A stretch of DNA of 63,195 nt, filler included, from Anaerolineae bacterium (lineage in GTDB: Bacteria; Chloroflexota; Anaerolineae; Epilineales; Epilineaceae): NCBI GenBank assembly GCA_029262755.1. It is 4 parts of 4 records of this genome, joined end to end, with 100 filler letters (N's around TTAATTAATTAA, not from the genome) between each part and the next. Parts side by side here need not be neighbours in the genome. Positions count along the whole stretch, not along the records: positions 59,565 to 63,195 come from JAJCYU010000048.1; 3 more parts are not named here. The stretch is one strand, 5' to 3'. Shown here in pieces: positions 17,927-63,195 of the stretch. The number at the start of each line of letters is the position of its first letter. Position 1 is the first letter of the stretch. The notes beneath the pieces were generated by a model that saw only the letters and a program-made list of their open reading frames with translations, did no database searches and was not told the DNA's origin. A program made the position numbers and the translations under genes.

Positions 17927-18026
17927 NNNNNNNNNNNNNNNNNNNNNNNNNNNNNNNNNNNNNNNNNNNNTTAATTAATTAANNNNNNNNNNNNNNNNNN
18001 NNNNNNNNNNNNNNNNNNNNNNNNNN
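17927..18026. other. Artificial contig linker
   Basis: N-run + TTAATTAATTAA (stops in all six frames) + N-run; abrupt GC shift across it. Confidence 0.98.
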
Positions 18027-46236: not shown

Positions 46237-46336
46237 NNNNNNNNNNNNNNNNNNNNNNNNNNNNNNNNNNNNNNNNNNNNTTAATTAATTAANNNNNNNN
46301 NNNNNNNNNNNNNNNNNNNNNNNNNNNNNNNNNNNN
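46237..46336. other. Artificial contig linker
   Basis: N-run + TTAATTAATTAA + N-run. Confidence 0.98.
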
Positions 46337-59464: not shown

Positions 59465-59564
59465 NNNNNNNNNNNNNNNNNNNNNNNNNNNNNNNNNNNN
59501 NNNNNNNNTTAATTAATTAANNNNNNNNNNNNNNNNNNNNNNNNNNNNNNNNNNNNNNNNNNNN
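59465..59564. other. Artificial contig linker
   Basis: N-run + TTAATTAATTAA + N-run. Confidence 0.98.
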
Positions 59565-59738
59565 ACTTCTTCGCCGAGGCGTTCGCCTCGCACGCGGAGT
59601 TGGCGTGCATGCCGGTGGCCGGCGGTCCGGGTCAGACGCACGAGGTCATCGACGACGGCGCGCGCTGCAACACCGACCCCAGTCTTTTCAACGACGATTC
59701 CGCACGGCTCCTTCGGCCGCGCCGAGAGCCGCCCATGC

Positions 59739-61523
59739 CTAGGGCGCCACCTTCGGCTCCCTGAGATAGGCGACCCGCTTGATGTTGAGCAGGTTGGTAT
59801 AGGTCACGTTGTCGGTCGTCGAGTTGTTGCCGAACGTACCGCAGCCGAGGGTCAGCGACGGGATCAGACCGCTGGTCAAGCCGACAACGCCGTGGGAACC
59901 CGGGCTGTTGACCAGGATCCGGCTCGCGGGCATCAAGCGACTGTACTGCTGCACCCATGCGTCGTTCTTGGAGTGGATGATCGCGGTATGGCCGATACCC
60001 TCCAGCTGGAGTAACTGCGCGGAGATCTCCATGCCCTGCTGCTCATCTTCCACCGTGAACAGACTGAGCACGGGGATCATCTTCTCGCGAGCATAGATGT
60101 TTTCCGAGTGGACGCCCTTGGTCGGGACGACGATCAACCGGATCGGATAGTCTCTCTGGATGGACGTGAATTCGGCCACGTAGGACGGGTCCTTGCCGAT
60201 CAGGCGGCGACGAAAGCTGCTCCCGTCCGCGAGCACCGCCTTCTCGGTAAAGCGGGCGGTTTCCTCCGCATCTAGTACCGCGGCTCCCTGCTCTTGCAAG
60301 CTATTGACGAAGGCATCACGGATGGACGCCACGACCACCAGATTGTGCTCGGCGCCGCAGATCAAGCCGTTGTCGAAGGACTTGCTGAGTACGACGCTGG
60401 CGGCCGCCTGGTCCGCATCGGCATCGGAACAGATCAGGGCCGGCGCGTTGGCCGGCCCTACGCCGAGCGCCGGTGTCCCCGAGCTGTAGGCGGCCTTGAC
60501 CATGCTGGCGCCGCCGGTGGCCAGAATCAGGGACACCTTGTCATGCTGCATGAACAACTCCGTCTTCTTGCGCGAGCTGCGGTGTCGGACCCATTGCACG
60601 AGATGTTCGGGTGCGCCCTCGCTGCGGAGGATCTGTTGTACCAACGGACCGACCTCTTCGGCGACGTCGCGCGCGGTGCGGTGAAAGCTGAGAATCAGCG
60701 CATTGCGCGACTTTATACAGATCAACGCCTTGAAGACCGCGGTGGCGACCGGGTTGGTGATCGGAATCATGCCGAACACGATGCCGACCGGCGCAGCGAA
60801 GTCGTGGACGAGGCGGTCCTGATCGCGGGCGACGATGCCACTGGCCGGTCGTCCGAGCAGGGATTCCAGCACGCCGAGCGCGGCCAAGTTGTTCTTGGCG
60901 GTCTTGTCGTGAACATTGCCCATACGCGTGACACGCACGGCTAGTTCGGCGTGTTCCTGCGCCTTCTCGGCAAAGCCTTGCGCAATCGCGGTCAGCAGCG
61001 CATCGATCTTGTCTTCCGGCCAGTCGGCGATCACCTTCTGCGCCTCGAGGGCCTGATCGATCAGCTCGTCAACCTCGCTGTCGTTGCCGGACACAATCAT
61101 GCTGGAAAGCAGCTTGTTGGCGGACCGCAGTTTCATAGCTGCCCCCTGACCCAACGCGGAAACCAGGGCTAAGCCGACGCGCGGGTCTTCGCGCGTCAGT
61201 GTCTCCAGCACCTCCGTGCTCAGCTTGCGGCACTCGACATCGCTGTGTGCATAGGCGCTGGCCGAGCGCGGCTGGCTGTCGAGCAGGGCCAGCTCACCCA
61301 TCACCGCACCCTTTTCGAGAAAGCCCAGAACGCCGTCCGAATCGAGTTCAGGGTGCGGCAGTTCCACGCGCACGGTGCCTTCGTCGATGAAATAGCAGCA
61401 ATCGCCCTCCTCGCCGGCATTGAAGATGCAACTGCCCGCTGCAAATCGGACCGCTTCAAGATATTGCTCCAGGCTCTGCAAGTCCTTGACTTGCAGGGAA
61501 ACCAAGGATTCATGGATCGACAC
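59739..61523 (-). CDS. cNMP-binding domain fused to a CoA-acylating aldehyde dehydrogenase (AdhE-N/EutE type)
   Basis: N-terminal GELALLDSQPRSASA phosphate-binding cassette; PITNP, ATGG..MVKAAYSSG, SKSFDNGLICGAE (catalytic Cys), GHTAIIHS and PSLTLGCG motifs. Confidence 0.9.
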   Translation of the reverse strand: MSIHESLVSLQVKDLQSLEQYLEAVRFAAGSCIFNAGEEGDCCYFIDEGTVRVELPHPELDSDGVLGFLEKGAVMGELALLDSQPRSASAYAHSDVECRKLSTEVLETLTREDPRVGLALVSALGQGAAMKLRSANKLLSSMIVSGNDSEVDELIDQALEAQKVIADWPEDKIDALLTAIAQGFAEKAQEHAELAVRVTRMGNVHDKTAKNNLAALGVLESLLGRPASGIVARDQDRLVHDFAAPVGIVFGMIPITNPVATAVFKALICIKSRNALILSFHRTARDVAEEVGPLVQQILRSEGAPEHLVQWVRHRSSRKKTELFMQHDKVSLILATGGASMVKAAYSSGTPALGVGPANAPALICSDADADQAAASVVLSKSFDNGLICGAEHNLVVVASIRDAFVNSLQEQGAAVLDAEETARFTEKAVLADGSSFRRRLIGKDPSYVAEFTSIQRDYPIRLIVVPTKGVHSENIYAREKMIPVLSLFTVEDEQQGMEISAQLLQLEGIGHTAIIHSKNDAWVQQYSRLMPASRILVNSPGSHGVVGLTSGLIPSLTLGCGTFGNNSTTDNVTYTNLLNIKRVAYLREPKVAP

Positions 61524-61533
61524 ATCATTCTCC

Positions 61534-63168
61534 TCAAGTTGTGTAAACGATTTCCTCTTGCATCGAATCGCTATCCAGTTCCGGCCGCCCGCGGGTATTG
61601 GACAGCGCGCGCACCGATCCGGTCAGCACTTCCGCCGCCCCTTGTTTGATCTTCAGGACCCGCACTCGCCCCTTGGCGCGTACCGAGGCCGTCCGCCGGC
61701 CCCGGTGGAACACCGACTCGCCAAAATGCTTGCCTTCGGACAAGGTGCCAATCAGCTCTTCCACACCGTTCTCGTTTTGAAGTACTTCAACTTCGCCCTG
61801 CTGGATGATGTACATGCAGTCGCCGGCTTCACCTTGTTTTACGATCGTTTGCCCGGGCTCATACAGGCTCTCCTCGATCCCGAGGGTTTGATCGGGACGC
61901 ACGGCCACGATATCTCGGCCAAAGAATGGCGCTACACACCAGTCGAGCAGGGTGCGCACGCGACGGTCCCAGGTCGGCAGATAGATCAGCATGAACGCGC
62001 GCCAGATGAGCCAGGCGGCAAAGCCCTTGAATTGAACTCTGTCCAGCAACTGTCCCACGGCGCGCCGGCTGCCCAGGGAACAGGCATCTCCCAGTCCGGT
62101 GAAACGGTAGGGTCTTGGAGGCTGGGCAAGGCTCAACAAGCGCAGGTTCCTGCCGATCTGGGTGCCGGCATTCATCGCGAACGTCGCCAGTGGCGGACAA
62201 TAGCCGCCGCGCGGATGGGGGACCGCGGCACAGTCGCCGCCGGCCCAGATGTTGTCGTGCCCCGGGAGTCTCAGGTAGGGGTCCGTGATCAGCCGGCCGC
62301 CGTCGTCGCGCTCGCATTCCAGTTGATCGAGCAGCGGGGATTGGGCGGTTCCGGTACAGCTGATGATGGTCCGCGTGGAGATCGTCTCGCCGCTACTGAA
62401 CATGACCTCTTCAGCGGTGGCCGATTCCACGCGCGTTCCCAGGTGCAGCTCAAGACCGGACTCCTGCACGAATCTCTCTGCATAGTTCACCAGTCCGGGA
62501 AAACGTTCCCTCAGTTCAGGCAGGATGTGTTCGCCGTTGTGCACGAGGACCACGCGCACCTCTTCATGGTCGATGCGTGCATACTCCTTGCGGGTCAGCA
62601 CGCGGAAGAAATCGACAAGCTCGGTGGCCACCTCGACGCCCGCATAGTTGCCGCCGGCCACGACGAAGGTCAGCAGGCGCCGGCGTTCGCGTTCGTCCGC
62701 TTCGATTTCAGCCAGATCGAGCATGGTCAGGATATGGCTGCGCAGGCGAAAACAGTCCCAATAGGCTTTCAGGCGAAAGGTGTGCTCGGCAATACCCGAA
62801 TAGCGCGAAAGATCGTCCACGGAGCCGAGCGAGACGACCAGGTGATCGTAGGAAAGCACATACTCCCGCCCATCCAGCGCGCGGCGGGTGGTGACGGTCT
62901 GGGCGGCCGTGTCGATGGACTCGATTTCCGCTTGGTGAAGCGCCGCGCCGGCAAACAATCTACGTGCCGGACTGGTGATGTTGAATGGTTGTATATGCCC
63001 GGTCAAGGTTTCAGCGATCAGGCCATGAAAGGTGTGATAGTTGTTGCGGTCGACAATGGTGACTTCGACACGACCTTTTTTTATGGAAGTCCTCAAGCTA
63101 CGAACCAGCCGGGTAGCGACATAGCCGCCTCCCAGACACACGATGCGGGTCGGGCTCTTCACCAACAT
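61534..63168 (-). CDS. Type II NADH:quinone oxidoreductase (Ndh-2) with a C-terminal cNMP-binding domain
   Basis: LGGGY, YDHLVVSLGS, AGGNYAGVEVATEL, WAGGDCA and AWLIWRAFML motifs; C-terminal IVKQGEAGDCMYII...FGESVFHRGRRTASV. Confidence 0.88.
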   Translation of the reverse strand: MLVKSPTRIVCLGGGYVATRLVRSLRTSIKKGRVEVTIVDRNNYHTFHGLIAETLTGHIQPFNITSPARRLFAGAALHQAEIESIDTAAQTVTTRRALDGREYVLSYDHLVVSLGSVDDLSRYSGIAEHTFRLKAYWDCFRLRSHILTMLDLAEIEADERERRRLLTFVVAGGNYAGVEVATELVDFFRVLTRKEYARIDHEEVRVVLVHNGEHILPELRERFPGLVNYAERFVQESGLELHLGTRVESATAEEVMFSSGETISTRTIISCTGTAQSPLLDQLECERDDGGRLITDPYLRLPGHDNIWAGGDCAAVPHPRGGYCPPLATFAMNAGTQIGRNLRLLSLAQPPRPYRFTGLGDACSLGSRRAVGQLLDRVQFKGFAAWLIWRAFMLIYLPTWDRRVRTLLDWCVAPFFGRDIVAVRPDQTLGIEESLYEPGQTIVKQGEAGDCMYIIQQGEVEVLQNENGVEELIGTLSEGKHFGESVFHRGRRTASVRAKGRVRVLKIKQGAAEVLTGSVRALSNTRGRPELDSDSMQEEIVYTT

Positions 63169-63195
63169 TCTCCTGTTCCGTGGATGCCACTTGTA

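Follow-up and report, generated by a model that had tools for sequence, protein, structure and literature searches.

The 63,195-nucleotide (nt) stretch of DNA analysed here, hereafter the window, to whose whole length all positions refer, belongs to an assembly of an Anaerolineae bacterium (GCA_029262755.1) and carries two adjacent genes, each combining a redox enzyme with a cyclic-nucleotide-binding (CNB) domain. One, at 59739..61523 with a GTG start, encodes a protein of 594 amino acids (aa) consisting of an N-terminal CNB domain and a CoA-acylating aldehyde dehydrogenase (ALDH), and the other, at 61534..63168, which precedes it in the direction of transcription, encodes a 544-aa NDH-2-like flavoprotein in which the CNB domain is C-terminal. 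The minus strand carries both genes, together with all their features given below, and both domain assignments—supported by Pfam and solved relatives, together with NCBIfam for the ALDH and alignment for the flavoprotein—agree with those of an earlier note on this DNA, as do the coordinates. The pair is not the singular two-gene system described there, both fusions being members of large, generically annotated families. Among 58 loci with a fused CNB-ALDH gene, a homologue of the NDH-2-like gene was found within ~6 kb in 40 and a patatin gene in 34, whereas the 13 loci at which the ALDH is unfused have neither of them; the real unit is thus a two- or three-gene module, with its own CNB sensor on every enzyme. 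The module is real, recurrent and uncharacterised, and it extends the known theme of CNB-regulated enzymes. According to the reading slightly favoured here, the two genes would represent the two-gene form of a recurrent, patchy and probably horizontally mobile module, the CNB domains of which would gate the enzymes by one messenger, with the NADH from the ALDH passing to quinone.

The sample behind these counts was obtained by scanning one genome per species and retaining the best 80 of 172 confirmed ALDH relatives, with identities of 41-59%; for the classification of each locus, all open reading frames (ORFs) were translated, with a patatin and four pieces corresponding to domains of the two window proteins as queries. 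In addition to the 58 loci with the CNB domain and the ALDH in one ORF, the sample covers the 13 unfused ones, i.e. nine close relatives and four AdhE-length proteins, and nine ambiguous loci left uncounted, three of which have the CNB domain in a separate upstream ORF and six of which are cut by a contig end. It should be pointed out that the loci (designated L, database relatives being designated P) are mutually related, and the counts do not represent independent events. Both additional genes are present in 27 of the 58 CNB-ALDH loci and neither of them in 11. A CNB domain is detectable by BLAST in 33 of the 40 linked NDH-2 homologues, the other seven being either cut by a contig end (two), split in frame (one), 583 aa long with no detectable CNB domain (two) or plain proteins of ~450 aa (two). 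The two fusions therefore co-occur in other genomes, contrary to the outcome that the earlier note had named as refuting its idea. The third gene, encoding a protein of ~610 aa with the CNB domain at the N-terminus, has both the cNMP_binding and Patatin domains in all eight examples scanned by Pfam, and NTE_Ploop in seven of them.

Concerning the gene order, 14 arrangements were observed, the most frequent being ALDH>patatin>NDH-2 (15 loci) and ALDH>NDH-2 (nine loci); the former order with NDH-2 on the opposite strand is seen in five loci and the order of the window, NDH-2>ALDH, in four. The window contains the two-gene form of the module, as in these four and the nine ALDH>NDH-2 loci, within the limits set by the contig ends; when the 173 nt that separate the ALDH stop from the end of the contig were searched for the start of a patatin gene, only matches at chance level were obtained. 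The two genes also co-vary: the pairwise distances of the catalytic parts of ALDH and NDH-2 from 37 loci are correlated with a Mantel r of 0.74, a value reached in 0 of 2000 permutations, and taxonomically odd placements are common to both genes, a Myxococcales locus, for example, grouping with Nocardioides. It should be noted that shared ancestry alone would yield such a correlation, too. In one locus from an Actinomycetota metagenome-assembled genome (L080:7676-11251, plus strand), the CNB-patatin and the NDH-2-CNB occupy a single open frame of 1192 aa, which reflects either two module members fused in nature or a stop lost in a long-read assembly.

The architectures themselves are widespread, carriers of the module spanning at least 11 phylum-level labels. 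In the database, 8000 candidates were scored, of which 3250 match the ALDH at E <= 0.001; the best 120, with identities of 51-85%, all carry PF00171 together with PF00027, and their sources label them in general terms, for instance 'aldehyde dehydrogenase family protein' or 'acyl-CoA reductase-like'. For the NDH-2-like protein there are 1786 matches, the best 120 all combining PF07992 with PF00027, and the names range from 'NADH dehydrogenase' and 'FAD-dependent oxidoreductase' to 'cyclic nucleotide-binding domain-containing protein', cultured Nocardioides being included. In the 151 sampled Nocardioidaceae the fused ALDH was present in two, which is a measure of rarity only, the number being too small for a co-presence statistic.

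In the ALDH fusion, the CNB domain (aa 25-112; 61188..61451) is recognised by the Pfam model cNMP_binding with an E-value of 2.3e-17 (63.2 bits; cut-off 27.5), and its barrel strands lie between aa 23 and 102 in an AlphaFold2 model of the protein (mean predicted local distance difference test score 82.2). A canonical CNB phosphate-binding cassette follows the rule G-E ... R-[ST]-A at set spacing, and the alignment assigns such a cassette, GELALLDSQPRSASAY (61251..61298), to the ALDH, its G76, E77 and R86 being invariant in 20 of 20 aligned relatives. A long predicted helix of 30 residues (aa 114-143; 61095..61184) links the barrel to the ALDH fold in the model; a helix after the CNB barrel is the usual connector through which CNB domains transmit. 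The acylating catalytic region (aa 147-589; 59757..61085) is supported by the Pfam model Aldedh and by NCBIfam models (NF010378, 437 bits; TIGR02518, 398 bits) and has its closest solved relative in the acetylating acetaldehyde dehydrogenase 5j78 (E 1.5e-96; aa 149-588), the next being AdhE N-domains near 1e-82 and an acylating succinate-semialdehyde dehydrogenase, with 3k9d, 6ahc and 8cei also among the solved relatives. The presumed catalytic Cys389 (codon 60357..60359; FDNGLICGAEH), lying within SFDNGLICGAEHN, is aligned to the cysteine of 5j78 and invariant in 20 of 20 relatives; we take it to be the nucleophile of the FDNG-x-IC motif, following the work on AdhE and EutE.

The EutE acetylating acetaldehyde dehydrogenase and the AdhE N-domain are the closest characterised catalytic relatives of the window ALDH, sharing with it the active-site stretch FDNG-x-IC-x-x-E, but the window protein differs from them in its scores below the cut-offs, in its N-terminal CNB domain and in having neither an ADH domain nor a microcompartment context. 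A quick tree places the fused ALDHs, together with their close unfused kin, in a clade apart from the four AdhE-length outgroup rows, with a support of 100 in the Shimodaira-Hasegawa-like approximate likelihood-ratio test (SH-aLRT); three rows labelled 'unfused' in that tree (L011, L019 and L020) are actually cut by contig ends. The close unfused kin, with no CNB domain and ~50-54% identical to the catalytic part, were seen in L007, L017, L024, L028, L031, L069 and L070. The ALDH as the partner of a split AdhE was considered and rejected, no gene for an iron-type alcohol dehydrogenase recurring among the 80 loci.

The junction between the two genes (61524..61536; AACTTGAGGAGAATGATGTG) is tight, the TGA stop of the NDH-2-like gene being overlapped by GAGGAG, which is followed by a 6-nt spacer and the GTG start of the ALDH gene, 10 nt past the stop. 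The overlap of stop and ribosome-binding site is as the earlier note had described it, and by this arrangement the two genes look translationally coupled.

As far as the NDH-2-like protein is concerned, its two-Rossmann FAD/NAD(P)H part is covered by Pyr_redox_2 (aa 8-322; 62203..63147; E 6.5e-31, 108.3 bits), followed by NDH2_C, the amphipathic C-terminal segment of NDH-2 (aa 363-419; 61912..62082), barely above the cut-off (28.3 versus 27.7 bits), and by the CNB domain (aa 436-511; 61636..61863; cNMP_binding, E 1.5e-19, 70.2 bits, cut-off 27.5). In the solved-structure search, this tail matches the cyclic-nucleotide domains of PKG, PKA-R and HCN, and the closest solved relatives of the flavoprotein are NDH-2 enzymes—9mqy (1.7e-37), 4nwz (1.4e-35), 5na1 and YjlD, the whole range being 1.7e-37 to 1.5e-32. 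The alignment indicates that both dinucleotide motifs and GDCA are retained, the stretches CLGGGY, AGGNYAGVE and WAGGDCAA forming invariant columns across the NDH-2-CNB family. The protein thus resembles NDH-2 (9mqy, 4nwz, 5na1) in its dinucleotide-binding motifs, GDCA and NDH2_C, and differs in the additional C-terminal CNB domain and in a canonical quinone-site motif that is not kept. The NCBIfam scan gave no match to an NDH-2 equivalog; an identity as CoA-disulfide reductase was rejected, the score being 43.6 bits against a cut-off of 578.8. The CNB parts of the two window proteins were also recognised by NF058543, the NCBIfam model of Pat. Among the best 120 NDH-2-CNB relatives, seven (P0128, P0132, P0134, P0138, P0139, P0153 and P0154) are ~911 aa long and possess an additional C-terminal part resembling ketopantoate reductase (PF02558 and PF08546), one of them being named '2-dehydropantoate 2-reductase' at its source.

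A candidate source of the putative messenger is present in the genomes. The genome of the window has 12 matches to class III cyclases and 13 to CNB domains, and in all five other module-bearing genomes searched, between one and eight cyclase matches were found. Most of the class III cyclase domains of the window's genome (G000; contigs C60, C255, C328, C277, C30, C218 and C223) lie in open frames of 1100-1360 aa, which are large multidomain signalling proteins. A cyclase also directly adjoins the module in two unrelated lineages: in six Nocardioides-type loci a class III cyclase-FHA gene is convergent to the NDH-2 gene, and in a Dehalococcoidia locus a CHASE2-cyclase ends ~50 nt upstream of the CNB-ALDH. 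The co-occurrence with cyclases that the earlier note had suggested looking for is therefore present in the genome and, in two lineages, beside the module.

In the mechanism proposed, for which we infer the ligand, the sign of regulation, the substrates, the direction of the ALDH and the quinone acceptor from sequence, one second messenger, most probably cyclic AMP (cAMP) made by class III cyclases, would bind every CNB domain in cis, and these domains would allosterically switch all enzymes of the module together, at the protein level and with no transcription factor needed. The ALDH would convert aldehyde, CoA and NAD+ to acyl-CoA and NADH, the NDH-2-like enzyme would drain the NADH so made into the quinone pool, and in the three-gene versions the NTE-like (lyso)phospholipase would supply the pathway from membrane lipid. 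Besides the linkage, the co-variation and the conserved cassette residues, two themes that recur among the neighbouring genes count in favour of this reading, namely the cyclases and the lipid-handling genes, the latter comprising the patatin gene itself and the neighbours given below. Several observations weigh against this reading or parts of it, and they are taken below together with the explanations to which they belong.

The first of these concerns the direction of the chemistry. Since both the acetylating acetaldehyde dehydrogenase and the AdhE N-domain run in both directions, homology cannot decide the direction of the ALDH; moreover, the protein scores under every NCBIfam equivalog cut-off (AdhE NF010378, 437 versus 951; EutE TIGR02518, 398.4 versus 620.1; SauS, 300 versus 600), and it is therefore treated as a distinct subfamily, the substrate of which is not assignable by homology. 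The CoA-ligase and exporter neighbours make the opposite, biosynthetic direction a serious rival, rated as rather improbable overall: the ALDH would be reductive, converting acyl-CoA to a (fatty) aldehyde for a modified or exported lipid, and the NDH-2-like protein would not be its respiratory NADH sink. A fatty-acid CoA ligase (NF009233, 835.5 bits; cut-off 832) is present in L023 and L051 and stands directly after the closest unfused ALDHs in L024, L028 and L031. A pair of MMPL and LolA-like export genes adjoins the CNB-ALDH in nine of the 58 loci, with Verrucomicrobiota, Planctomycetota and Proteobacteria labels, exporter genes of the DevB/FtsX type occur in the cyanobacterial locus L057, and an aldehyde-handling class III aminotransferase, PigE-like or putrescine-type, lies beside the ALDH in L047 and L058. 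A biosynthetic, reductive role would account for the MMPL/LolA-like, exporter and CoA-ligase neighbours just as well. The flavoprotein itself adds to this, the canonical quinone-site motif of NDH-2 being AQxAxQ: PPTAQIAIQHG of 4nwz corresponds to PPLATFAMNAG in the window protein, and the family consensus PPLAIYAMTAG, i.e. A[IT][YF]AM[TN]AG, does not keep the motif either, so that quinone is a presumed acceptor. What speaks for the oxidative direction is the pairing with NDH-2 in 40 of the 58 loci, most simply understood as an NADH producer next to an NADH oxidiser.

The second explanation, held to be just as improbable as the reductive one, is that the CNB domains of the module are not sensors of cyclic nucleotides, binding another small molecule or serving only as a dimerisation or regulatory scaffold, as is the case in several families with the CNB fold. 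It draws on the cassettes that are degenerate in whole lineages retaining the module. The ALDH shows the complete G-E..R-[ST]-A pattern in 36 of the 58 loci, its arginine being retained in 49 and replaced by histidine or glutamine in nine, while among the 33 NDH-2 cassettes 23 are canonical, five have R-[ST]-R and five lack both the glutamate and the arginine, where the row of L080 may represent the CNB domain of the patatin, since the two genes share one ORF. The degenerate cassettes cluster in the Solirubrobacterales-type loci, with FGQRWL--E..ETES in NDH-2 and R-W-A in ALDH, and in the Ignavibacteria/Bacteroidota-type loci, the ALDHs of which have the cassette arginine changed to histidine or glutamine; the CNB domains there therefore cannot all be classical binders of cAMP or cyclic GMP (cGMP). 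The window contributes a case of its own. The cassette of its NDH-2-like protein, FGESVFHRGRRTASVRA (61675..61725), or FGE-SVFHRGRRTASVRA, retains G, E, R, T and A and is nevertheless shorter by one residue than the cassettes of all 20 aligned homologues, the 89%-identical P0121 (FGEMAVFHQRRRTASVRA) among them. The statement of the earlier note that both cassettes look intact can thus be kept for the ALDH, the cassette of which is canonical, and has to be qualified for the NDH-2-like protein. Further, a 2007 survey (PMC2246266) describes CNB families in which the cassettes are non-canonical and other signals are sensed, and nucleosides are reported to replace cAMP in the trypanosomatid PKA (PMC10959531). 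On the other side stand the invariant cassette G, E and R in the 20 aligned ALDH relatives, the majority of canonical patterns in both families, the fully canonical cassette of the window ALDH and the cyclase genes adjacent in two lineages. Judging from these residues, most members, including the window ALDH, look like competent cyclic-nucleotide binders, while in some lineages the CNB domains probably sense something else, or nothing.

The idea, also raised in the earlier note, that the CNB domains dock the ALDH to the NDH-2-like protein in a hetero-complex channelling NADH is considered very unlikely. It could appeal, indirectly, to the conserved adjacency with the apparent translational coupling and to the long helix predicted after the CNB barrel of the ALDH, CRP-type proteins dimerising by a similar long helix. 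The loci speak against it, however, with their 14 arrangements, including those with NDH-2 on the opposite strand, and with many having the ALDH and no NDH-2. An NDH-2 homologue is absent from the flank in 18 of the 58 CNB-ALDH genome loci, and in metagenomes neither NDH-2 nor patatin was found in the often one-sided flank of any of seven loci with a fused ALDH; these last two results bear on the favoured reading as well. The metagenome scan yielded 14 loci with a best identity of 59%, the contigs of P0002 (85%) and P0121 (89%) not being among them.

Finally, that the adjacency in the window has no function, the two genes being chance neighbours or brought together by an assembly or binning artefact, is dismissed as scarcely credible: the contig is only 3.6 kb long, differs in G+C content from its genome (61.7% versus 66.8%) and the fused ALDH was found in 0 of 40 relatives of this genome, but the pairing recurs in 40 of 58 loci from many phyla as opposed to 0 of 13 unfused ones, the identities of 41-59% exclude copies of one contaminating sequence, and the 10-nt junction has a ribosome-binding site, mis-binning altering the host and not the linkage.

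The host, by contrast with the linkage, is uncertain. The RecA of the genome is closest to proteins labelled Ardenticatenia/Anaerolineae, whereas the window ALDH groups in the quick tree with loci labelled Verrucomicrobiota/Planctomycetota (SH-aLRT 95), which, together with the G+C difference, indicates that the contig was either acquired horizontally or mis-binned; its tetranucleotide distance is unremarkable. The linkage between the ALDH and NDH-2 genes stands in either case. This contig, with its two genes, holds neither a cyclase nor a patatin gene, which has to be counted, like the uncertain host, against the favoured reading. Near-identical modules were also seen across different labels, namely in L009 (Planctomycetota label) and L013 (Pseudomonadales label), with 92% and 90% aa identity, and in L015, L016 and L039 from three gammaproteobacterial families, with branch lengths <= 0.014; they reflect either very recent transfer or binning errors. 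In the window's genome, the contigs C25, C423, C286, C372, C276 and others have 35-40% G+C and tetranucleotides unlike those of the 67% G+C bulk, which points to contamination of the bin despite the estimate of 0.72%.

Returning to the module with CNB domains that would gate its enzymes by one messenger, a more far-reaching form of this reading, offered here as speculative, is that of a self-contained, horizontally transferable cassette with a sensor on every enzyme, in which lysophospholipase, CoA-acylating ALDH and NDH-2, when triggered by cAMP, would together lead from membrane lipid into the respiratory chain. As each enzyme brings its own receptor, such a cassette would need only a cyclase in a new host. 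Bolder still, it might correspond in bacteria to the defence of eukaryotes against lipid peroxidation. In the eukaryotic case, damaged acyl chains are removed by a patatin-type phospholipase, lipid aldehydes are cleared by an ALDH and quinol is regenerated by an FSP1-like NDH-2; in the bacterial one, all three would be subject to one second messenger. Bacterial cAMP is mostly viewed as acting via CRP-type transcription factors, and to our knowledge only a few bacterial enzymes are switched by cAMP directly, of which the mycobacterial acetyltransferase Pat is the one that has been studied. Should the domains prove to bind cAMP or cGMP, the module would represent a post-translational 'regulon by domain fusion', tying the oxidation of lipids or aldehydes within seconds to the quinone pool, and, if true, it would show how a pathway could change hosts without its regulator. 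The module offers a testable function for three uncharacterised, widespread protein families and, being present in cultured Nocardioides strains, among them Nocardioides silvaticus CCTCC AB 2018079 (L074), N. humilatus BN130099 (L078) and Nocardioides sp. MH1 (L075), is accessible to ordinary biochemistry and genetics.

With regard to known systems, the third gene of the module resembles NTE/PNPLA6/Swiss-cheese in its combination of cNMP_binding, NTE_Ploop and Patatin, the eukaryotic NTE proteins being membrane-anchored and having several CNB domains. The window differs in that no NTE-type gene is present on the module contig, its own genome having only a 33%-identical two-CNB paralogue on another contig. 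This patatin protein (G000:C155:316-2418, minus strand; also L082, L099 and L102) has two CNB domains in a 774-aa frame, the identity referring to the module patatin. The studied precedent for switching by a CNB domain is the bacterial enzyme MtPat/Rv0998, in which this domain is N-terminal and which is activated by cAMP allosterically and post-translationally (PMC8556138); MtPat and MsPat (MSMEG_5458) share with the module the fusion of a CNB domain to a bacterial enzyme, but are single proteins with a GNAT acetyltransferase output, whereas the module is a linked set of CNB-tagged ALDH and NDH-2 known from sequence alone. The earlier note knew of no described system of this kind, but for the flavoprotein a combination of Pyr_redox and CNB domains had already been listed. 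In the 2007 survey by Kannan et al. (Genome Biol 8:R264; PMC2246266), a prokaryotic family 'Bact_Pyrredox' is listed with an N-terminal pyridine-nucleotide-disulphide oxidoreductase and C-terminal CNB domains, like the window NDH-2, for which a link to NADH-related processes or NADH production was suggested. It differs from the window protein in having CNB domains in tandem and GEMGLISGRRRGATVRA as the consensus of the cassette, the NDH-2-CNB here having a single CNB domain after NDH2_C and the cassette FGE(x)AVF...RRTATVRA. The word 'aldehyde' is absent from the main text of the same survey, and its family table has no entry for a CNB-ALDH or an operon. Neither a CNB-ALDH or NDH-2-CNB fusion nor the three-gene cluster was found in the open full-text literature, subscription journals and preprint supplements being outside the search.

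Concerning the layout of the window, the stretch is composed of four contigs separated by artificial linkers (N run, TTAATTAATTAA, N run) at 17927-18026, 46237-46336 and 59465-59564, and gene neighbourhoods are therefore not readable across these positions. The sequence to the left of the last linker (59465..59564) belongs to another contig, while the module contig, 59565-63195, is a separate one of 3631 bases, of which 59566-63195 maps to G000:C48:2-3631. On its plus strand, an open frame that enters from the contig end (59565-59764; ...ARCNTDPSLFNDDSARLLRPRREPPMPRAPPSAP*) overlaps the 3' end of the ALDH gene by ~25 nt before its stop and might represent the C-terminal part of a convergently oriented gene. 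Apart from ALDH, NDH-2 and patatin, none of the genes at the module loci is conserved throughout the clades. Individual neighbours that handle lipids comprise a fatty-acid desaturase with DUF2461 in four Ignavibacteria/Bacteroidota loci, a phospholipase/carboxylesterase in L049 and a gene with LPG_synthase_C in L116.

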